Source: an uncultured Planctomycetia bacterium (lineage in GTDB: Bacteria; Planctomycetota; Phycisphaerae; FEN-1346; JAACEH01). From it: a DNA stretch of 64,000 nt. Position numbers and translations under genes: made by a program. Positions 1 through 64,000 of this stretch are shown here, one piece after another (the first letter of the stretch is position 1; the number at the start of each line of letters is the position of its first letter). The notes under the pieces were generated by a model that saw nothing but the letters and a program-made list of their open reading frames with translations, had not been told where the DNA came from and made no database searches. The DNA lies in NCBI GenBank assembly GCA_903929765.1, contig CAIYVX010000033.1:5037-69036 (forward strand), in the 5' to 3' direction.

Positions 1-2298
1 CTTTTCGAAAAAGGAACACTTGAAGGCCGCAACTTTATCAAAGACTTTTCTGACATTTCAATCATTCCCGCGTTGCTGGAGAATTCTGGTGGAGTAGCAA
101 CTGAGATTCAATCAAAATCAGTTTCCGATGCTATATTTGCTGCCGAAGTGAATATTTGGTGGGCCAATGTTAAGAGCGAGTACCTACAGGAGAAAGACCC
201 TTACACCGTCCTTGCAAAACGTGTAATTTTGAACTGGATCAACCGGTTCTTGTTTGCGCACGCCATCAAAACTAGATTCGCCAAGGCAACAGAGGTTGAG
301 AAGATAACTTACGTTGTTTCTGTACGCGACGCCTGCTTAATTTTCGAAAGCATATCCAAAGATTGTGACTTTTGGACCGTCTTTCAGCCATTTCTTGGCG
401 AAAATTGCCTTAGTAACTCATTCTGGCAACAGGTAACACAGCTTAATGCCTTTCTTTCCGAAATCCGTTTCTCTGAACTTGATCAGAATCTATTAAGGAC
501 GTTCCTTGAGACCTCAGTCGTATCCTATCAAAGGAAGCTGGCGGGTCAATTCACAACTCCTTCTGCACTTGCGGATATTCTTGTTCGATTGACTTTGATC
601 GACCGCAATGCTCCAATCCTTGATCCTTTTTGTGGTACCGGAACGATAGCTAGAGCCGCCTACAATGTCAAAGTTGAGAGTGGTCTTGATCCAGTTGTAG
701 CGCACGAGGGCGTATGGGCCAGCGACAAGTTTCCTTTCCCACTTCAAATTGCGTCGATTGCGCTTTCCCCTCCAGAATGCATGGGGATGTTGCTTCATGT
801 TTTTAAGGCTGACGCATTGTCTCTTACATCTGGCCAAATATTGGGATTCATCGACCCTAACGACGGAACTCGTCGAACCGAGGCACTCCCATCTTTCCGG
901 TTTATAGCCAGTAACCTGCCATTTGTGCAGCAAGAGGATTTGAATGTTGCTAACCCAGGTTTGGCCAAAATTAACAGCTTCATCCTTGAGAAAACCGGAA
1001 CTATTGACCAACTCGACGCGAGGAGCGATCTTTTTGCGTATTTGCCATTCTATTTGTGGAGAATCCTTTCAGACGATGGCCGACTAGGTGCCATCCTATC
1101 CAACTCTTGGCTCGCTACGGAGTGGGGGGCTACCTTTCGCAATCTCCTTCAACGATTCTTCCACATTGAAAAGGTAATTGTTTCAGGTGCCGGTCGTTGG
1201 TTCAGGAATTGTGATGTGGTCACGACAATTCTGGTTCTCAATAAGCGGGCTGTCGTTTCTTCGCCATCCACAAATGAAATAACCAGCTTCGTTCGACTTG
1301 ACCTCCCCATTCAGGAAAGTCTTAACGCTAGCGAGACAAAAACTATTGCCGAGCACATGCTGCTCGGCAAAGATATTCCATCAGTCCTTGTTACCCGCGC
1401 ATATTCGCAGGATCGTATTGTCGAACTTGAGGGCCTTGGAATGAATTGGTCCTCTCTCTTCGCAGGACTAGAATGGCTAAAACGAATCAAAGACCAACTG
1501 GTCAAAGTCAGTAGTCTTTTTGAGATTAACCGGGGCATGCGTCGGGGTTGGGATCCAATGTTTTATCCCGCGAAGTCTCATTCTATTGAGGCAAATTACT
1601 TAAAGCCGTTCTTGAAGTCCTCTCGCTCGGTTGAAGGTCTTATTGCTTCTCCGGACGGCGAGGCTTTCTGCTGTAACAAGAATCTTACCGAACTTAGAAG
1701 CCTTGGACACAAAGGAACTGTCCGTTGGATTAACCGTTTCGCCCACGCCACAAATGAGAAGGGCAAGCCATTGCCGAAGGTTTTGAAAATACCCGGCATG
1801 GAATGGTATCAGATGAATGCGTCAACTCTGGCCGACCTCGTTATGCTCATTAACTACGACAAGCGTCTGTTTGTCGCCAAAATGAGTCAACAAAGTTTTG
1901 TGAACCAGAGGTTGACTCGACTTACGGTCCGGTCTCAAGAGGTTGATGTTCCACTTTGTCACGCTATTCTGAACAGCATCATCGGGGTCTTCTACATCGA
2001 GGCGTTGGGCTTCGGGCGTGGTCTTGGCGTTTTGGATCTGAATACCTCGAAAATGAGAGAGAACTTGTTCATGCTCAACCCGGCTCTAGTCTCAGTTGCT
2101 TCCCGTGAGGCGATCCTGACGGACTTTGATCCACTTCTTAAGAGGCCGGTTGCACCTATCCTGGAAGAGTTAACACGCGAAGAGCGCAGGCGTTTCGATG
2201 AAACGGTTCTCGCATCTTTCGGCTTGCAGAATGAATACGATCACATCGTGGGGGCGTTCATGACTCTTTACAATATCAGAAAGGCTGTTGACCGGTAG
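1..2298 (+). CDS. N6-adenine DNA methyltransferase, Eco57I/type IIG-like (5' partial, open to window start)
   Basis: The reading frame has no stop from nt 1, so the listed TTG at 73 is probably internal. It carries SAM motif I DPFCGTGT followed by a catalytic motif IV-like SNLPF (an NPPF/NPPY variant). The Eco57I-type segment SDLFAYLPFYLWRILSDDGRLGAILSNSW follows. GC is visibly lower than in the rest of the window. Confidence 0.7.
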   Translation, partial: LFEKGTLEGRNFIKDFSDISIIPALLENSGGVATEIQSKSVSDAIFAAEVNIWWANVKSEYLQEKDPYTVLAKRVILNWINRFLFAHAIKTRFAKATEVEKITYVVSVRDACLIFESISKDCDFWTVFQPFLGENCLSNSFWQQVTQLNAFLSEIRFSELDQNLLRTFLETSVVSYQRKLAGQFTTPSALADILVRLTLIDRNAPILDPFCGTGTIARAAYNVKVESGLDPVVAHEGVWASDKFPFPLQIASIALSPPECMGMLLHVFKADALSLTSGQILGFIDPNDGTRRTEALPSFRFIASNLPFVQQEDLNVANPGLAKINSFILEKTGTIDQLDARSDLFAYLPFYLWRILSDDGRLGAILSNSWLATEWGATFRNLLQRFFHIEKVIVSGAGRWFRNCDVVTTILVLNKRAVVSSPSTNEITSFVRLDLPIQESLNASETKTIAEHMLLGKDIPSVLVTRAYSQDRIVELEGLGMNWSSLFAGLEWLKRIKDQLVKVSSLFEINRGMRRGWDPMFYPAKSHSIEANYLKPFLKSSRSVEGLIASPDGEAFCCNKNLTELRSLGHKGTVRWINRFAHATNEKGKPLPKVLKIPGMEWYQMNASTLADLVMLINYDKRLFVAKMSQQSFVNQRLTRLTVRSQEVDVPLCHAILNSIIGVFYIEALGFGRGLGVLDLNTSKMRENLFMLNPALVSVASREAILTDFDPLLKRPVAPILEELTREERRRFDETVLASFGLQNEYDHIVGAFMTLYNIRKAVDR

Positions 2299-2334
2299 CC
2301 GCGTTTGAAGAAATGCTTTCTAATTGGAGTTCCC

Positions 2335-4185
2335 ATGCCCCGCACATTCCGCGTCATCTTTCAGCCCTTCGGCCGCCAGGTGGCCGTTGCCGAGGGCCGC
2401 ACTGTTCTTGAGGCTGCGCAGCAGGCCGGCATCGAAATGACCTCGCCCTGCGGCGGGCATGGCACTTGCGGCGGATGTCGCGTCGAAATCACACGCGGCA
2501 CGCCCCCGCCCACCGACGCCGGCGCGGAACGGCTGACCGCCGAGGAACTTGGCCGCAATGTGCGACTGGCTTGCCAGACCCGCGTGACGCAGGACATGAC
2601 CATCGTCATTCCGCGCGAATCCCTCCTGTTCGACCAGCAGATTCTCGAAACCGGCATCGCCGTCAACGTTGAACTCGATCCCAACGTCCGCCGCGTGCCG
2701 CTCAAAATGCCCGAACCCTCCGTCGACGACCAGCGCAGCGACGCCGACCGCCTCACCGACGCCCTCGCGGAGCAGGGGGTCGAGGCCACGGTTGACCTGG
2801 CCCTGGCCCGCGAACTGCCCGACCGCCTCCGCCGCGCCGACTTCTCCGGCACCGCCGTCGTCCTCGCCGACCGCGTCGTCCAGTTCGATCGCGGCGATTC
2901 CAGCGCCGCAAATTACGGCGTCGCCGTCGACCTGGGCACCACGACCATCGTCGCCGCCCTCATGAACCTCGCCACCGGCCAGGAAGTGGCCGTCGCCTCC
3001 TGCGGCAATCCCCAGGCCGCCCACGGCGACGATGTGATCTCCCGCATCATGTACGCCCAGGAATCCGCCACGCGGCTCCGCGAACTTCAGCAACTCGCCG
3101 TCGGGGCCTTCAACAAACTGATCGACGAACTCTGCGAAAAGGCCGACCTCAAACGGACCTCCATCTACGAACTCGTCCTCGTCGGCAACACCACCATGAC
3201 GCACCTCATCCTCCGCCTCGACCCGACCTACATCGCCCGCGCCCCCTTCATCGCCGCCCTGCGCCGCGGGGCCGTCGCTGCGCCGCGAGATTTGGGCATC
3301 GCCATCAACCCGCGCGGCAGCGTTTACGTCGGCCCCAACATCGCCGGCTTCGTCGGCGCCGACACGGTGGCCGTCATCCTGGCCGCCGGAATGCACAAGT
3401 CCGACAAAATGCGTCTGGCCATCGACATCGGCACCAACGGCGAACTGGTCCTCGGCCACCGCCAGCGGCTCCTGGCCGCCAGCACGGCCGCCGGACCCGC
3501 CTTCGAGGGCGCCCGGATCAAATACGGCATGCGCGCCGCCGCTGGAGCCATCGACCGCGTCGACGTGCTCGACGGCCGCCTCCGCGTCCACGCCATCGGC
3601 GACGCCCCGGCCATCGGCCTGTGCGGCACCGGCCTGATCGAAGCCGTCAGCGCGTTCCTGGAACTGGGCGTCATCGACGAAACCGGCCGCATGATCGAAG
3701 ACGCGGATTTGGCCAAGCTGCCCAAATCTATCGCCGCGCGGCTCGTCGGGGCGGAAAACGACCGGGCCTTCGTCCTGGCCGACGCGAAGGAAACGCACAA
3801 CGGCCACCCGGTCCTCCTGACGCAAAAGGACGTGCGCGAAGTCCAGTTGGCCAAGGCGGCGATGTACGCCGGGGCCAAGGTGCTGATGGCCGAAATGGGC
3901 ATCAAGGTCGCCGACTTGGACGAAGTTCTCCTGGCCGGGGCCTTCGGCAACTTCATCCGTCCCGACCGGGCCAGGTCCGTCGGCCTTCTCCCCGAAACTC
4001 CGCTCGACCGCATCCGCTTCATCGGCAACGCCGCCGGCACGGGGGCGCGGATGATGCTTCTCGACCGCCGCCTCCGCGACACGGCGGAGGAGATCAGCCT
4101 CGGCGTGGAGCACGTCGAACTCTCCGGCCGCGCCGACTTCCAGGACTTCTTCGCCGAGGCGATGCTGTTTACCCCTCCCTCGTGA
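2335..4185 (+). CDS. 2Fe-2S ferredoxin / ASKHA-domain protein, RACo-like corrinoid reductive activase family
   Basis: N-terminal plant-type ferredoxin motif CGGHGTCGGCRVEI. Long ASKHA/DUF4445-like body (AVDLGTTT, DIGTNGE, TAAGPAFEG). GGAG lies 5 nt before the ATG at 2335. Confidence 0.75.
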   Translation: MPRTFRVIFQPFGRQVAVAEGRTVLEAAQQAGIEMTSPCGGHGTCGGCRVEITRGTPPPTDAGAERLTAEELGRNVRLACQTRVTQDMTIVIPRESLLFDQQILETGIAVNVELDPNVRRVPLKMPEPSVDDQRSDADRLTDALAEQGVEATVDLALARELPDRLRRADFSGTAVVLADRVVQFDRGDSSAANYGVAVDLGTTTIVAALMNLATGQEVAVASCGNPQAAHGDDVISRIMYAQESATRLRELQQLAVGAFNKLIDELCEKADLKRTSIYELVLVGNTTMTHLILRLDPTYIARAPFIAALRRGAVAAPRDLGIAINPRGSVYVGPNIAGFVGADTVAVILAAGMHKSDKMRLAIDIGTNGELVLGHRQRLLAASTAAGPAFEGARIKYGMRAAAGAIDRVDVLDGRLRVHAIGDAPAIGLCGTGLIEAVSAFLELGVIDETGRMIEDADLAKLPKSIAARLVGAENDRAFVLADAKETHNGHPVLLTQKDVREVQLAKAAMYAGAKVLMAEMGIKVADLDEVLLAGAFGNFIRPDRARSVGLLPETPLDRIRFIGNAAGTGARMMLLDRRLRDTAEEISLGVEHVELSGRADFQDFFAEAMLFTPPS

Positions 4186-4549
4186 CGGAAAACGGCATTT
4201 TATTTCCGCGTGGCTGCAAGCAGCCACCCTACAGGACTAAAAAAACAGCAAAAAAAGAAGAAGAGAAGATGGGTTTTCGTGAGTTTGCGTTCCGGGGGTT
4301 TCACCCCCGGCTACATTCTTTCGGCCCTTCGGGCCTTTGAGTTCGGTCTTTGGACGTGCCCCCGACGGCCAGAGCCGACGGCGTTTGCACGGCGGAAAAG
4401 ACGGGTACCCGCCCGACAGGAAACCTAACCCTAAAACCGTTTGACATTCCCGTCCTTCTTTGCTACCCTTCCGGCTTCTTTCCCCGACGATAAGCAGGGA
4501 AAAGCAGCGACCACGCCGTGGAGCGTGAATGGCTGCCGCAAAGGTTTTT

Positions 4550-29188: not shown

Positions 29189-29275
29189 TGGTGCTCGGGA
29201 CAGGAGTCGAACCTGCAAGCCCTTGCGGGCACTGCCACCTCAAAGCAGCGTGTCTGCCAATTCCACCACCCGAGC
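29189..29275 (-). tRNA. tRNA-Leu (anticodon GAG), long variable arm, CCA encoded
   Basis: Minus-strand read: GCUCGGG-UG-GUGGAAUUGGCAGACACG-CUGCU-UUGAGGU-GGCAG-long variable arm-GCAGGUUCGACUCCUGU-CCCGAGC-ACCA. The cloverleaf folds by hand. Confidence 0.9.
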
Positions 29276-59546: not shown

Positions 59547-60173
59547 CTAGGCCACCAGTTTTTTGGCCACGTCGACGGCCGAGGCGGCATCGGCAGCATA
59601 GCCTTCGGCGCCGATTTCGTCGGCGTAGTTCTGGGTGACCGGGGCGCCGCCGATCATGACCTTGGCGGTGAGGCCGGCGGCCTTGAGGGCCTTGACCACG
59701 TCGCGCATCTGGGGCATCGTGGTGGTCAGCAGGGCCGACATGGCCACGACGCACTTTCCATTTTCCTTGACCGAGGCGACAAACTTGTCGGCCGGGACGT
59801 CGGTGCCGAGGTCGATGACCTGGAAGCCGCCGCCCTTGAGCATCATGCCGACGAGGTTCTTGCCGATGTCGTGGAGGTCGCCCTTGACGGTGCCCAGGAC
59901 GATCTTGCCGATGGGCTGAACGCCGCTGGAGGTCAGCACGGGCTGCAGCAGGTTCATGCCGGCGTGCATGGCCCGAGCGGCGATCAGGACTTCGGGAACA
60001 TAGACTTCGTTCTTTTTGAACTTGGCGCCGATGATGGCCATGCCGGCGATCAGGCCTTCTTCGAGAATCTTCTTCGGGCTGACCTTCTCGTCAATGGCCT
60101 GCTGGACCAACTTGGTTACGGTGTTGCGATCGCCTTTTTGCAGCGCTGCACTGATGCCATTGAGATCTGCCAT
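59547..60173 (-). CDS. Cobalamin-binding corrinoid protein (methyltransferase cognate, MtmC/MtbC/MttC-like)
   Basis: B12-binding DxHxxG motif GDLHDIGKNLV, the SALLTTTM and GGAP signatures, and an N-terminal helical cap. Confidence 0.85.
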   Translation of the reverse strand: MADLNGISAALQKGDRNTVTKLVQQAIDEKVSPKKILEEGLIAGMAIIGAKFKKNEVYVPEVLIAARAMHAGMNLLQPVLTSSGVQPIGKIVLGTVKGDLHDIGKNLVGMMLKGGGFQVIDLGTDVPADKFVASVKENGKCVVAMSALLTTTMPQMRDVVKALKAAGLTAKVMIGGAPVTQNYADEIGAEGYAADAASAVDVAKKLVA

Positions 60174-60233
60174 GAGTTGCTCCCCTGTCTGTTAACAATC
60201 TGGGACGACGAAAACCACGTCTAGGCCACGCGC

Positions 60234-61043
60234 CTATTTTTTCGCATCGTTCGTGGTTTTCGGTCCCGTGGATTCGGACGACTTCACTACCGGCGGCACG
60301 ACCGCCGCCCCGCCACTGGCGACCTGCGCCGCCGGAACTTTAACTGCGGCCGCGCCGGACGGTACTGCCGAGGCCTTTGGTGTCGCGGGCGTTTCGGTGT
60401 CAAAGTCGAGCGGCTTGGCCTCCCGCAGAATCTTCAGGCGCTCATTGGCCCGGGTCTCAATCGACGTGTTCGGATTCTCTTTGGCCAGAGCGATAAACTG
60501 CTTCTCGGCATCGGCCTTGAGGGCCGGTTCCTGATCGCTCATTTCTGCCGCGACCGAGGCCAGGCCTAATTTGGCTTCCAGACCGATGTCGTCTCGGCGC
60601 GAGGCGAGTTCCTCGTAGCGGCGCTTGGCCTCTTGAAAATCATTTTTGACGTTCAGGCTGCCCTTGGCGGAAGGCTCGGCCCAACCGAAGATCGCCCGAT
60701 CATAATAACGGTTAGCCAGGCTGAGTTTGGCCGCCGTCGCCATGGGCGAGGTGGGAAACTGGCGAATGAAGCTATCGAGTTCGGCGATCTGCCTGGTCAA
60801 CTGGTCGATCATCTCGCCGCCGGTCGACCCGTTCAGACTCGGGAGAAAAGCGATCATCGCCCGGTCCGCATCGGCCTTCTTACGTTGGCCGCTCTTGGCG
60901 TAAAAGGAGACCGACACCCCCACGACCAAGGCGCCGATCAGAACATAGGCCAGATAAGGTTTAGCCTGTGTCCACCAACGGAGCAGGGCCTCGGCCAGTT
61001 CATTGTGCGTCATTTGCTGTCGTTCTGTCGCCTTCATTCGCAC
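60234..61043 (-). CDS. Membrane-anchored TPR-like protein (YfgM-like architecture)
   Basis: Single N-terminal TM (YLAYVLIGALVVGVSVSFY), helical repeat body, Ala/Pro-rich tail. Tentative. Confidence 0.4.
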   Translation of the reverse strand: MRMKATERQQMTHNELAEALLRWWTQAKPYLAYVLIGALVVGVSVSFYAKSGQRKKADADRAMIAFLPSLNGSTGGEMIDQLTRQIAELDSFIRQFPTSPMATAAKLSLANRYYDRAIFGWAEPSAKGSLNVKNDFQEAKRRYEELASRRDDIGLEAKLGLASVAAEMSDQEPALKADAEKQFIALAKENPNTSIETRANERLKILREAKPLDFDTETPATPKASAVPSGAAAVKVPAAQVASGGAAVVPPVVKSSESTGPKTTNDAKK

Positions 61044-61203
61044 CTTCCCAAAAGACCGCCGCGCTGGGGCACAAGCCCTTCATCGACCGTCTCCGACCTG
61101 TTCTAGAACGGAAATGCTAGCCGACCGGAGCAAAAATGACAATACAAAAACCGACACTCGGCGGCAAAAATCCGCGCCGGGCCGCTGAGCGGCTCACGAA
61201 AAA

Positions 61204-61845
61204 TCAGAACTTCGCCAGCCGCTCGGCATAGCGGAAGGCGGCCGCCACCTCCTGGACTGACAGTCCGGCCCCGCGCAGGACAGCCTCGGCCCCCGCCCGG
61301 TCATAGAGATCCTGCGGGCCGTGGGCGTCAGAGCCGAAAATCACGGCGGCCCCGGCGGCGCGGGCGGTGACGGTCACGTGGCCGTTGGTCAAAGAATGGC
61401 CGCGGCGACCGGAGATTTCCAGGGCCACGCCGCGCCGGGCCGCTTCGCGGGCGTCGGCCTCAGTGATGAAGCCCGGATGAGCCAGGATGTCGGTCCCGGC
61501 CGCGATGGCGGCGCGATTGGTGCCGGGCAGAACCGGCTCGACCGGCGACTCGCCGTGAACAATGACCAGGTCCGCCCCGAGTTGGCGGGCCCGGGCCACG
61601 ACCGCGGCAATGTGCTCGAGCCGGCAGTGCGTCACCTCGCAGGAGGCCAGAACTTTCAGACTCATGACCGCCGAAAGTTCCCGCGCCGCCCGGACCAGCA
61701 CCGGCACGGTCGCCTCGACCGTGGCGTGGTCCACATGGTCGGCAAAGGCAAAGGCCCGGAAGCCCTTGACCTCGACGCGGCGGGCCAGTTCGGCGGGAAT
61801 CAGTTCGCCATCGGAAAGGAACGTATGCATGTGAAAATCGATCAT
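61204..61845 (-). CDS. PHP domain metal-dependent phosphoesterase (histidinol phosphatase-like)
   Basis: MIDFHMHTFLSDG and later HGESP and GSDAHG metal-ligand motifs. Confidence 0.8.
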   Translation of the reverse strand: MIDFHMHTFLSDGELIPAELARRVEVKGFRAFAFADHVDHATVEATVPVLVRAARELSAVMSLKVLASCEVTHCRLEHIAAVVARARQLGADLVIVHGESPVEPVLPGTNRAAIAAGTDILAHPGFITEADAREAARRGVALEISGRRGHSLTNGHVTVTARAAGAAVIFGSDAHGPQDLYDRAGAEAVLRGAGLSVQEVAAAFRYAERLAKF

Positions 61846-61920
61846 AATTTGGTCACTCGCCAGAAAATCTTTAGCGCTGTTCTCACCGGCCGGTGATGCC
61901 GTCTCTGCCGGAAAATTCTG

Positions 61921-61994
61921 TACGCCCGGGCAGAGTCGAACTGCCGACCTGCGGTTTAGGAAACCGCCGCTCTATCCTTCTGAGCTACGGGCGC
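61921..61994 (-). tRNA. tRNA-Arg (anticodon CCU), CCA not encoded
   Basis: GCGCCCG-UA-GCUC-AGAAGGAUA-GAGC-G-GCGGU-UUCCUAA-ACCGC-AGGUC-GGCAG-UUCGACU-CUGCC-CGGGCGU-A. G1-U72 wobble. Confidence 0.85.
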
Positions 61995-62010
61995 ATCCTG
62001 ATGGTGACTG

Positions 62011-62039
62011 ACTATATCGCCCTGGGACAAAACCGTCAA
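62011..62039 (-). promoter_or_regulatory. Sigma70 promoter of tRNA-Arg (TTGACG-N17-TATAGT)
   Basis: Minus strand: TTGACG 62039-62034 and TATAGT 62016-62011. Confidence 0.55.
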
Positions 62040-62094
62040 GGACCAGGACCAGGCTGCCGCTTCGGAAGCCGAAGCGAGGGAGGCAAAGCGGCGC

Positions 62095-62123
62095 TTGAAC
62101 GTTGCGTCCGTCGTCGTTATAAT
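62095..62123 (+). promoter_or_regulatory. Sigma70 promoter of the truncated tRNA-Gly (TTGAAC-N17-TATAAT)
   Basis: TTGAAC 62095-62100 and TATAAT 62118-62123. The tRNA-like sequence starts at 62142. Confidence 0.6.
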
Positions 62124-62141
62124 CGCTGTCTGCCTTTTTTC

Positions 62142-62182
62142 GCGGGCGTAGCTCAGTGGTAGAGCTCCAGCCTTCCAAGCTG
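62142..62182 (+). pseudogene. 5' fragment (41 nt) of tRNA-Gly (UCC): acceptor 5' strand, D arm, anticodon stem-loop only
   Basis: GCGGGCGUAGCUCAGUGGUAGAGCUCCAGCCUUCCAAGCUG, then unrelated sequence (caaactgaaattgtaacc...). No T arm or 3' acceptor strand follows. Confidence 0.75.
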
Positions 62183-62383
62183 CAAACTGAAATTGTAACC
62201 TCTTTCGGAACCGCCACTTCCAGTGATGGCCTTCTGACCCACAGCAGTAACCACAGCACTTCGTCCGAAAACGACGACCTCCAACAATTGGTCGACGCCT
62301 GGCAGACTCTGCCGGCACCGATCAAAGTCGCCATCCTGGCCATGGTGAAAGCGACCGGCAAACCGATGGAGGGCACGGCATGA
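62156..62383 (+). CDS. Small hypothetical protein of the element (start uncertain)
   Basis: Its stop overlaps the next ATG (ATGA at 62380). The C-terminal DLQQLVDAWQTLPAPIKVAILAMVKA resembles small proteins I have seen on mobile elements. The listed GTG start lies inside the tRNA fragment and is doubtful. Confidence 0.3.
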   Translation: MVELQPSKLQTEIVTSFGTATSSDGLLTHSSNHSTSSENDDLQQLVDAWQTLPAPIKVAILAMVKATGKPMEGTA

Positions 62384-62952
62384 TCACTCACCTTGGCCTT
62401 CCCTCAGAGCAACCAGAACCCACACCGGCTATTCGACAATTGGCAGAATCGCTTCGGGGTCTGCTTCACCCTGAACTGACGGAAGCAGATTTCGAGGAGG
62501 CGAGAAAGTACCTGGCCGATCCGTATGCGTGGTGGGCGACTTGGTTTGACATTACCCGCGAAAACTACGCGAGGTTTGTGGTCTTTCGCTCGTCTCCGGA
62601 AACGGCAACAGGTCACAAACTCTGTTCCGCCACTGACGAAAACGGGCGGCCATGTCAAAACGAAATCCTGTTTGACGGCCGGGGAGCCGACGCGCCGGAG
62701 CGATTCATCTTCGGCCTTAGCGACCGGTGTCCGGCCCATCAGGAGGTTTTTTGGTGCTCTGACCTGAGTGGGGTTGAGTCGGACGTGGATCAGGTCAGTG
62801 CCGTAATTAATAAAAAGCTGCGGCGGCTTATTTCAGCAGATTTCACGGCTCCATGTGTCAAGTGCTCCGTCATGTTTTGGTTCGGCAGGGAGCCCGTAGG
62901 CCTGCCTCGCCTGTTTACCGACGAAGCAGGAAAGGGGTCATTCGAATGGTAA
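62380..62952 (+). CDS. Hypothetical Cys-containing protein of the element
   Basis: 190-aa ORF. Possible zinc-binding pairs (CSATDENGRPC, CPAHQEVFWC, CVKC). No family recognised. Confidence 0.4.
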   Translation: MITHLGLPSEQPEPTPAIRQLAESLRGLLHPELTEADFEEARKYLADPYAWWATWFDITRENYARFVVFRSSPETATGHKLCSATDENGRPCQNEILFDGRGADAPERFIFGLSDRCPAHQEVFWCSDLSGVESDVDQVSAVINKKLRRLISADFTAPCVKCSVMFWFGREPVGLPRLFTDEAGKGSFEW

Positions 62953-64000
62953 TTGGCGAGACGGAGAAACCTAAGGGCACGGAAATGGCGACCCTGAAGC
63001 CGCTCCAGAGGGCAGCGGTAAGTTACAAGGAGTCCCGGATGGCCGAAGAGGCCAGCCCTGAGGGGGTGAAGACCTCCAGGCGGCAGGCGGCGGCCAAGCG
63101 GCTGGCCCAGCGTGCTGCCAACCGAGCGAAGACCAAATCCCAGGCGATGCCCAGGAGCGACGTTACCGCTCTTTTTCGCCCTGACATTGCGAAGTCAGGA
63201 AAGACCGTGCCGATCTTCAATGTGCTGGAGGTACTGCTGCAGCAGCCGATTTTTTCCGGTAAGGCCGGAATGATCCGGGCCTTGGTTCTGGCCAAGATTT
63301 ACGATACGGCCAATCGCAACACTAACGCCATGATGTGCTGGCCGACCATCGAGTACCTGTGCACCAGCCTTGGAAGAAGTAAGAGTTCCGTCTGCCGGGC
63401 GATCAAGTGGCTGGAGCGGAACAGGTGGATCGGGGTCATCCCAGACTACTTCAATAAATCCACCACACCCCACAACATCTATTATCTGTTGGACCCCAGG
63501 TTGGCAGCAGGTGGTAGCGGAGTGTCAGCAGGGCACCCGGCTACCAGTAATCGGCAGGTGGTAGCGGAGTGTCTTACAGACACCCCGTTACCGGTAGCGG
63601 AGTGTCTTACTGACTCCCGGCTACCGGTAGCGGGTGGTCTTACTGACACCCTAACAGTAGAAGAAGAAGCTTTAACAGAAGAAGAAAAAGAGAACAGGGG
63701 AGGGGGAGCAGCGGCCGCGGCTTCGCCGCGTCCGCCAGCCCCCCACCCTGAATCTTTAAAAGAAGAAGATCAGGAGGACCTGGGTATCAAGAATAAAAAT
63801 TCTTTAGAAACAGGATCCCTGATTACCGAAGGTCGGGCTTCAAAAGAAAATGAAATGGGATCCCTGGTTACAAAGAATAAAGATTTTTTAGAAACAGAAT
63901 CCCTGATTACCGCAGGTAGGGCTTCAAACAGAAACAACAGCCCCTCCCCCGGTTCCGTTTTACCCCCTCCCCTCATCAAAGAGATTCATCCTTATCTCCT
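62946..64000 (+). CDS. Winged-helix (HTH_36-like) replication-initiator-like protein, 3' partial (open to window end)
   Basis: My own translation found no stop from 62814 to 64000; this ORF is absent from the track because it has no stop. CWPTIEYLCTSLGRSKSSVCRAIKWLERNRWI looks like the wHTH of phage/plasmid initiators. Start at ATG 62946 (overlaps the previous stop) or ATG 62985. Confidence 0.5.
   Translation, partial: MVIGETEKPKGTEMATLKPLQRAAVSYKESRMAEEASPEGVKTSRRQAAAKRLAQRAANRAKTKSQAMPRSDVTALFRPDIAKSGKTVPIFNVLEVLLQQPIFSGKAGMIRALVLAKIYDTANRNTNAMMCWPTIEYLCTSLGRSKSSVCRAIKWLERNRWIGVIPDYFNKSTTPHNIYYLLDPRLAAGGSGVSAGHPATSNRQVVAECLTDTPLPVAECLTDSRLPVAGGLTDTLTVEEEALTEEEKENRGGGAAAAASPRPPAPHPESLKEEDQEDLGIKNKNSLETGSLITEGRASKENEMGSLVTKNKDFLETESLITAGRASNRNNSPSPGSVLPPPLIKEIHPYL
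63513..63658 (+). repeat. Four 33-bp iteron-like repeats with internal dyad symmetry (GGTAGCGGAGTGTC...GGCTACC)
   Basis: R1 63513-63545, R2 63560-63592, R3 63593-63625, R4 63626-63658. R2-R4 are contiguous. An A/T- and purine-rich tract follows (gtagaagaagaagctttaacagaagaagaaaaagag). Confidence 0.75.
63789..63933 (+). repeat. Two roughly 61-nt AT-rich direct repeats, period 84 nt
   Basis: aagaataaaaattctttagaaacaggatccctgattaccgaaggtcgggcttcaaaagaaa versus aagaataaagattttttagaaacagaatccctgattaccgcaggtagggcttcaaacagaaa. Confidence 0.7.

Follow-up and report, generated by a model that had tools for sequence, protein, structure and literature searches.

Integrases that target tRNA genes ordinarily recombine an attP site that carries the 3′ part of the tRNA, such that an intact gene is formed at the junction with the 5′ part of the host gene. 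Among the classical crossover sites of the tRNA-targeting tyrosine integrases, a sublocation in the anticodon loop was reportedly recognised by Williams in Nucleic Acids Research in 2002, and in the Journal of Bacteriology of the same year Zhao and Williams are said to have described a ‘reversed target orientation’ of integrative elements. The locus considered here lies at the right-hand end of a stretch of DNA of 64,000 nucleotides (nt) from an uncultured Planctomycetia bacterium (contig CAIYVX010000033.1), hereafter the window, whose host is probably a planctomycete (Planctomycetota). At this locus a tRNA-Gly(UCC) gene with a promoter-like site ahead of it is cut near the end of its anticodon stem and is followed directly by DNA of foreign composition. 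Our favoured reading, which is tentative and to which we attach a probability of about 0.4, is that this DNA is the left arm of a self-replicating integrative element, inserted site-specifically into the anticodon stem–loop of the chromosomal tRNA gene with the rare 5′-side geometry.

Several described systems are close to what is seen here. Recombination at the 5′-distal side of tRNA genes is considerably rarer but documented (PMC6563490, which cites Zhao and Williams 2002 along with several archaeal cases). In tRNA-dependent lysogeny, recombination at a short common core disrupts the tRNA gene of the host, and a cognate tRNA is brought in by the phage (Guerrero-Bustamante and Hatfull 2024, PMC10865867). 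Lastly, in ICEKp1 the promoter of a host tRNA-Asn gene drives the integrase gene int (PMC13023037).

The truncated tRNA-Gly gene and its promoter

The features on either side of the junction, in window coordinates, are the following.

61920–61994, − strand: intact tRNA-Arg(CCU) in host DNA (ARAGORN; Rfam tRNA, 64.6 bits)
62011–62039, − strand: promoter-like site TTGACG-17-TATAGT, directed towards tRNA-Arg (10/12 in a consensus scan; putative function)
62095–62123, + strand: promoter-like (sigma-70-like) site TTGAAC-17-TATAAT, directed towards tRNA-Gly (10/12 matches in a consensus scan)
62142–62182, + strand: 5′ part of tRNA-Gly(UCC), GCGGGCGTAGCTCAGTGGTAGAGCTCCAGCCTTCCAAGCTG, 41 nt, canonical positions 1–42 (direct reading; partial Rfam match)
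62167–62182, + strand: anticodon stem–loop CCAGC-CTTCCAA-GCTG, the presumed recombination core, at whose right edge the tRNA homology stops
62183–64000, + strand, continuing to at least 64743: left arm of the foreign element (composition; proteins with essentially no homologues)

Of the tRNA, the fragment retains the 5′ strand of the acceptor stem, the D arm and an anticodon stem–loop that lacks only the last of the five bases on the 3′ side of its stem, and the first non-tRNA base is the C at 62183, where G43 would be expected. In other words, the tRNA homology ends one base before the end of the anticodon stem, which is where the core of an integrase targeting the anticodon loop would end. 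ARAGORN calls no tRNA at the locus, and the Rfam tRNA model matches the fragment with 26.7 bits, below its gathering score of 29, with the T arm and acceptor 3′ strand unpaired. Searches across the whole window returned neither a tRNA-Gly 3′ half (three weak matches, where 2.5 are expected by chance) nor a second copy of the core CCAGCCTTCCAAGCTG. Classical 3′-restoring integration leaves an intact tRNA next to the host promoter and 5′ part; here there is none, and what is found instead is a displaced tRNA 5′ fragment, with its host promoter, that abuts element DNA, as expected of 5′-distal integration. An intron or other RNA family at the junction was also considered and rejected, as there was none at E ≤ 1 in 60000–64000 beyond matches at chance level. 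A first-pass annotation, made from the letters of the sequence, had read at this point a promoter and a tRNA-Gly(UCC) of canonical form that stops after 41 nt, with neither T arm nor acceptor 3′ strand after them; the ARAGORN and Rfam results agree with it, and the coordinates lie one base to the left of those that its numbering implied.

The fragment is no chance resemblance, since the exact 41-mer is the 5′ half of an intact tRNA-Gly(UCC) in each of the 37 JGI metagenome contigs in which it occurs, mostly within a Tyr–Gly–Thr cluster of other phyla. These loci represent many phyla and at least seven kinds of 3′ half, and their flanks are unlike either flank seen here; in IMG/VR the 41-mer is absent. 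As all 37 of these other loci are intact, the truncation is unique to the window locus, and the suggestion, raised in the first-pass annotation as one that would undo its own reading, that the same junction might be conserved in distant relatives fails, the junction having been found in no relative.

The tRNA-Arg gene and the tRNA-Gly fragment are divergent, with a spacer of 147 nt between them that contains both promoter-like sites, each correctly positioned ahead of its own tRNA; that of tRNA-Gly ends 18 nt 5′ of tRNA position 1. The two are the only sigma-70-like sites found in the 2.4 kb of 61600–64000, against 0.8 expected from shuffled sequences. In the intact tRNA-Gly genes of three GC-rich contigs (L096, L104 and L111, GC 0.62–0.63, each with a solitary tRNA-Gly), a TATAAT is preceded by a TGGCAA/TGACAA motif, and the leader is 21 nt long. 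To judge from its sequence and placement, the site at 62095–62123 is probably the native tRNA-Gly promoter, now aimed into the element, and in this the first-pass annotation was correct. No terminator-like site was found on the + strand after the fragment, and the leader fold there is unremarkable (z = −0.38). By analogy with ICEKp1, read-through from the tRNA promoter into the genes of the element is plausible. As a separate observation, the 5′ ends of tRNA-Arg (61980–61994) and of the tRNA-Gly fragment (62142–62156) form a 15-nt inverted repeat, 87% complementary, that flanks the spacer.

The junction in independent samples

The truncation and the junction with foreign DNA are real. In the lake study, another sample yielded an ENA contig (L002, spanning 61810–63803) that runs from a PHP-domain gene through the tRNA-Arg, the spacer and the fragment into 1.6 kb of the element, with the same junction as the window. 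Single sequencing runs, read as Logan contigs, give the same result: a contig of run X1, which belongs to the same lake study, covers 62153–62380, and one of run X4 covers 62135–62363, both across the junction with 0 mismatches, the X4 contig holding 7 nt of the host-specific leader, the entire fragment and 181 nt of the element. With the exception of one exact copy in X1, to which we return below, the tRNA-Gly genes found elsewhere in these runs have 1–2 or more base differences within the 41 nt. An assembly chimera at 62182/62183, which the first-pass annotation had named as what would refute it, is ruled out by the exact single-run contigs of X1 and X4, and L002 likewise crosses the junction with 0 mismatches.

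To the left of the fragment the coverage is less even. In one sample, contig ends fall at 62003 and 62006, and no Logan contigs covering 62000–62134 were found. The depth over the tRNA fragment is 50–260, tRNA sequences being common to many organisms in the sample, and the breaks and the gap would be explained by 3–6× coverage together with graph clean-up that dropped a short low-depth link between two high-depth tRNA nodes. It was also observed that a 508-nt Logan contig of run X3 (depth 3.66) matches 61543–61995, that is the PHP gene and tRNA-Arg, with 1 mismatch, after which it departs from the window and reads AAGTTACTGCAAATAAGCTACTTACGAAAA; the contig reflects either a strain difference on the right of tRNA-Arg or a chimeric path in the graph.

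The left arm of the element and its replication module

The GC content of the element was measured over 62183–64509 (~2.3 kb), which is the end of the window plus the extension provided by an ENA contig (L001), itself identical to the window over their overlap (0 mismatches). It is 0.556, against 0.618 for the 62 kb of host DNA to its left, a value to which only 1.7% of host windows of that length descend; at third codon positions the GC content is 0.57–0.59 in the open reading frames (ORFs) of the element and 0.72–0.85 in five nearby host genes. The switch at the cut to unrelated DNA of lower GC, as first noted from the letters, is thus evident in both measures. The features within it are as follows.

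62156–62383, + strand: ORF1, 75 amino acids (aa), its GTG start codon lying in the tRNA fragment (ORF list; called in only one assembly)
62380–62952, + strand: ORF2, 190 aa, with GGAGGG ahead of its ATG and a 4-nt overlap with ORF1
62944–64000, + strand, continuing to about 64743: rep (product P0001), 599 aa (Pfam and PHROG profile matches)
63507–63651, + strand: iteron-like array of about four units at 33–47 bp spacing, within rep (Tandem Repeats Finder, L001 1505–1649; repeat families D2 and I1–I2)
63754–63921, + strand: two 84-nt tandem copies, 79% identical, coding the low-complexity linker of Rep (repeat family D1)

The small ORFs are coupled, as had been proposed, the 4-nt overlap of the first two being followed by one of 9 nt between ORF2 and rep. 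ORF1 is doubtful as a gene: its frame runs open through the junction, and there is no Shine–Dalgarno-like motif before its in-frame starts. Neither ORF1 nor ORF2 matches a family in Pfam, PHROG or NCBIfam. Rep has a recognisable layout, in which a low-complexity linker joins a helix–turn–helix (HTH) initiator like that of phage O proteins, at the N terminus, to a DnaC-like P-loop domain at the C terminus. The HTH matches Pfam HTH_36 (1.5e-7, 31.6 bits, cut-off 25), the initiator region matches the replication-initiation families phrog_270 (2.1e-8) and phrog_391 (7.1e-7), and the C-terminal part matches the DnaC-like loader phrog_50 (7e-5).

In phage lambda, the iterons of the origin lie inside the gene of the O initiator, and the loader is the P/DnaC-like protein. 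Rep shares with O-like initiators both the HTH initiator domain and iteron-like repeats inside its own gene, at what is the predicted origin. The units of this array, of period 33/47 with 81–88% matches, are each internally palindromic (GGTAGCGGAGTGTC...GACAC.CCGCTACC), and by analogy with the lambda ori within gene O the array is a candidate replication origin. Taken together, ORF1, ORF2 and rep form, to judge from their sequence, a replication module such as belongs to a temperate phage or to an integrative plasmid. Short contigs break in the region of the 84-nt repeats, L002 and a second contig both stopping at 63803.

Over the ~2.3 kb of the element that were covered, no integrase was found (Pfam, PHROG and NCBIfam; tblastn with the integrase of L003, a contig described below), and no tRNA gene in 62183–64509 (ARAGORN, Rfam).

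Relatives of the element and of the host locus

Exact-protein look-ups with ORF2 and Rep matched only short ENA contigs, the longest of which reaches 65025. In a word-indexed search of 5.8 billion proteins, Rep, ORF2 and ORF1 each matched only themselves, and an exhaustive phmmer search of 1.84 billion representative proteins gave one weak relative of Rep (4e-5). A scan of IMG/VR with Rep, and tblastn against GenBank phages and PLSDB plasmids, returned nothing. On this evidence from sequence searches the element is an orphan, and because it has no relatives a family-level comparison of attachment sites is impossible. As an observation apart from these searches, a 162-nt contig in a wetland metatranscriptome from a different study (run X22) matches ORF2 at 62653–62793 with 1 mismatch, the one hint at RNA level. 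Since this contig matches ORF2, the element, or a near-identical relative of it, is present outside the lake study; the element may also be transcribed, although the X22 contig could be DNA carry-over.

For the host locus, the closest genomes found by means of the neighbouring PHP protein are Planctomycetota metagenome-assembled genomes (MAGs), at 65–71% identity. The only one of these PHP relatives to keep tRNA-Arg(CCU) beside the PHP-domain gene, as in the window, is on a MAG contig of 5.2 kb (JAPLML010000127.1, L003), which resembles the window no further than tRNA-Arg. A tRNA-Gly at the PHP locus is present in none of the Planctomycetota MAG relatives, and the comparison with related genomes lacking the insertion that the first-pass annotation had called for yielded no empty site. 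A motif TATAAT-NN-CTGTCTG shared with L003 was set aside, as it belongs to no wider homology. On L003 itself, within 1520–3010, there is a gene for a tyrosine integrase of 424 aa. It begins some 140 nt beyond the 5′ end of tRNA-Arg(CCU), from which it reads away, on the side of tRNA-Arg where the window carries the tRNA-Gly fragment. It may mark another 5′-side insertion; no repeat of a tRNA-Arg fragment was found in the window or in the 5.2-kb contig.

An intact tRNA-Gly as candidate far junction

In run X1 the 30-mer at 62153–62182 branches, with one path into the element (depth 4.09) and the other into a contig of 263 nt (depth 6.9) that reads GTCATGTGGGTTCGATTCCCATCGCCCGCTCCA and then TTGCCAAACACGGACGCCCGTTGCCAAATC. 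The first of these sequences provides a perfect closure of the anticodon stem, a T arm and an acceptor strand for the 5′ half seen in the window, and is identical to the 3′ halves of L096, L104 and L111. A further X1 contig (944 nt, depth 6.86) contains the identical 41 nt preceded by ...ACCCACAAAAACCTACAATCCAAGCAACAA, such that identity with the window begins exactly at tRNA position 1. The intact tRNA-Gly of X1 is the copy flanked by ACCCACAAAAACC..., and its upstream flank is A-rich, with 40% GC, a single G and a TACAAT 11 nt before the tRNA. In composition this flank is unlike the host, and the TACAAT is what might be expected of a promoter supplied by the element. Neither the upstream nor the downstream flank has a copy in the window or in any fetched locus. 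The depths in X1 are 4.7–5.6 for host contigs and 4.1–6.0 for element contigs; as these are similar, the intact tRNA-Gly could belong to the same genome. Past the CCA end of this tRNA-Gly, it may be added, are the 30 nt that read TTGCCAAACACGGACGCCCGTTGCCAAATC, in which TTGCCAAA is repeated 20 nt apart, possibly as protein-binding repeats beside the tRNA.

With an upstream part that could come from the element and a 3′ half of host type, the intact gene has the structure to be expected where a 5′-side integration ends on its far side, and it may represent that junction. To this extent it lends indirect support to the suggestion of the first-pass annotation that the intact copy and the integrase lie at the far end. 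Equally, it could be an element-borne or paralogous gene, or one that belongs to another organism.

Mechanism of integration and alternatives

According to the favoured reading, the element would be a small temperate phage or an integrative plasmid that arrived by site-specific recombination, and the anticodon stem–loop at 62167–62182 would be the crossover site, by analogy with what is generally known of tRNA-targeting tyrosine integrases and with the short anticodon-adjacent cores described in PMC10865867. The geometry would mirror the usual arrangement. On the side seen in the window, the host promoter and tRNA positions 1–42 would be kept, joined to non-tRNA element DNA, and at the far junction the host 3′ half would be completed to a working gene by a promoter and a 5′ part that the element supplies. 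The integrase would lie near this far, tRNA-rebuilding end, and the host tRNA promoter would read through into ORF1, ORF2 and rep. We favour this 5′-side model because there is no integrase at the end that is seen, because the duplicated segment in X1 starts at tRNA position 1 and because its 3′ half is of the type found on GC-rich contigs. The position of the cut also has to be accounted for, in that a random deletion would strike the end of the anticodon stem only by coincidence, the chance of which we estimate at a few per cent.

Several points weigh against this model. The far end, the integrase and the direct repeat are all unseen in the sequence examined (the window and its extension to 64509), and the element is without relatives, hence there is no family pattern with which to compare it. 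In X1 the depth of the intact gene (6.9) is somewhat higher than that of the junction contig (4.1), and this gene could be another organism's, the 41-mer being common to many phyla. Moreover, the junction contig of X4 passes unbranched through the 41-mer, with no trace of the alternative flanks, which at 2.7× depth is weak evidence against linkage.

A further step within the 5′-side model is a swap of promoters, whereby the only tRNA-Gly(UCC) of the host would depend on the promoter and 5′ half brought by the element, and the native promoter, with its truncated leader, would be captured for the replication operon of the element. We regard this step as conceivable, though the odds are clearly against it.

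The alternative that survives best, and that we hold to be possible if rather unlikely, is integration without rebuilding of the tRNA. Here attP would share only a core of ≤ 16 nt within CCAGCCTTCCAAGCTG, and the inactivated host tRNA-Gly(UCC) would be replaced by an element-borne tRNA-Gly(UCC) or by a second chromosomal copy. The visible junction resembles an attL of this type, with the host 5′ part up to the anticodon region followed by unrelated element DNA, and the mechanism has been demonstrated experimentally in several phage clusters with cores of 8–17 bp (PMC10865867). The intact tRNA-Gly of X1, with its foreign-looking flank, could accordingly be read as the element-borne gene or the paralogue. 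On the other hand, there is no tRNA gene in the 2.3 kb of element seen, and no integrase beside the junction, whereas in phage Boilgate attP is directly upstream of int (PMC10865867). The X1 gene is, moreover, identical in 41 of 41 nt from position 1 and has its 3′ half in common with GC-rich contigs, as would be expected of a host gene that was rebuilt more than of a phage tRNA that has diverged, and the 263-nt contig of X1 is unbranched, with no second entry into the 3′ half detected, an observation that is weak at that depth.

A decayed remnant is improbable. Under this explanation an element of the usual geometry lay beside an intact tRNA-Gly, and a later deletion or rearrangement removed the 3′ half and the integrase end. 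The junction, at which neither is present, would be as expected, and so would an ORF1 without a convincing start. However, the break falls within one base of the end of the anticodon stem, the 599-aa rep gene, the iterons and the coupled ORFs are all intact, and the loss of the only tRNA reading GGA would require compensation in any case.

Less probable still is that the foreign segment begins at the 5′ end of tRNA-Arg (~61995), the promoter and tRNA-Gly fragment then being a cargo scar from an earlier host. The divergence of the X3 contig after 61995, the breaks at 62003 and 62006, the absence of a Logan contig over 62000–62134 and the integrase gene on the same side of tRNA-Arg in L003 can all be cited for such a boundary. 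Against it, L002 and the source contig are continuous over 61810–63803, and the spacer carries a correctly placed tRNA-Arg promoter, which the host needs; the contig breaks are explicable by low coverage and graph clean-up, as argued above, and a similarity to L003 that ends at tRNA-Arg says nothing on tRNA-Gly.

Finally, a chimera made by the assembler through a shared tRNA k-mer, for which the sharing of a sequence by many organisms is a classic cause, and a split tRNA gene joined at the RNA level as in Nanoarchaeum, which the first-pass annotation had entertained, can both be dismissed as extremely unlikely, given in the first case the exact X4 contig that holds leader, fragment and element in a single run, and the base differences of the other tRNA-Gly genes (bar the one X1 copy), and in the second that a search confined to the window found no separate 3′ half with pairing segments, that the break is followed by foreign coding DNA, not by a GC-rich pairing segment, and that the leader fold is unremarkable.

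Other features of the window

At its left edge the window is also low in GC (0.46 in 1–1500, against a host mean of 0.62), and an ORF of 741 aa at 73–2295 (+ strand) contains an N6 DNA methylase domain (Pfam N6_Mtase, 4e-8). This patch may be a second foreign or defence-type insertion. An Acido-Lenti-1 RNA motif (RF01687) lies at 4292–4336 (+ strand), between RACo-like and pyruvate phosphate dikinase genes, with 43.6 bits against a gathering score of 37. ARAGORN also calls a tRNA-Leu(GAG) at 29189–29275 (− strand), which is not among the three tRNAs listed by the Rfam scan of the window at gathering threshold.

Significance

Integration on the 5′ side, or without rebuilding of the tRNA, is known from archaea, a few bacteria and the actinobacteriophages. 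If the locus were confirmed as either, two rare mechanisms would be extended to the Planctomycetota, a phylum with little-studied mobile elements, and nature would provide an instance in which the replication genes of an element are connected to the promoter of a host tRNA. Were the promoter swap also true, loss of the element by any route other than precise excision would cost the host an essential tRNA, in effect a built-in addiction. Should the far end show a decayed remnant, the finding would be an ordinary one. There is a practical side as well, in that island-finding software and most textbook accounts expect a rebuilt 3′ part beside an integrase, such that junctions of this kind are missed, or misread as pseudogenes or misassemblies.

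Comparison with known systems

With the classical tRNA-targeting prophages and islands, the locus shares a tRNA gene as target and a break of homology at the anticodon stem–loop; the difference is that their junction with the host 5′ part has an intact tRNA, whereas here it is truncated. The elements of 5′-distal type come closer, in that at one of their ends, too, the host promoter and a tRNA 5′ fragment are left displaced, with neither a rebuilt tRNA nor an integrase beside them. What sets the present case apart from them is that the rebuilt gene, the element promoter and the integrase were not seen, apart from candidate reads, that the host is probably a planctomycete and that the proteins are orphans.

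The one visible junction also has the character of tRNA-dependent lysogeny, the host tRNA not being reconstructed at it. In the actinobacteriophages Fionnbharth, LeBron and Gaia, attB is likewise in a tRNA gene near the anticodon and there is no reconstruction beside the host 5′ part (PMC10865867). The differences from tRNA-dependent lysogeny are that the part of the element seen contains neither a cognate tRNA nor a tyrosine integrase, that the gene adjacent to the junction is not int and that the phylum and type of element are other ones.

Like ICEKp1, the locus has a host tRNA promoter aimed into the element with no predicted terminator between; in ICEKp1, however, the tRNA is intact and the gene driven is int, whereas here a truncated tRNA is followed by ORF1, ORF2 and rep. 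The replication module resembles the lambda type in its N-terminal O-like HTH, its iteron-like repeats in coding sequence and its DnaC-like P-loop, and differs from it in that a single protein of 599 aa unites initiator and loader, across a low-complexity linker that is repetitive, the similarity being at the level of profiles only. The overall picture is of a member of known, rare classes of tRNA-gene integration, represented here by an orphan element in a poorly studied phylum.

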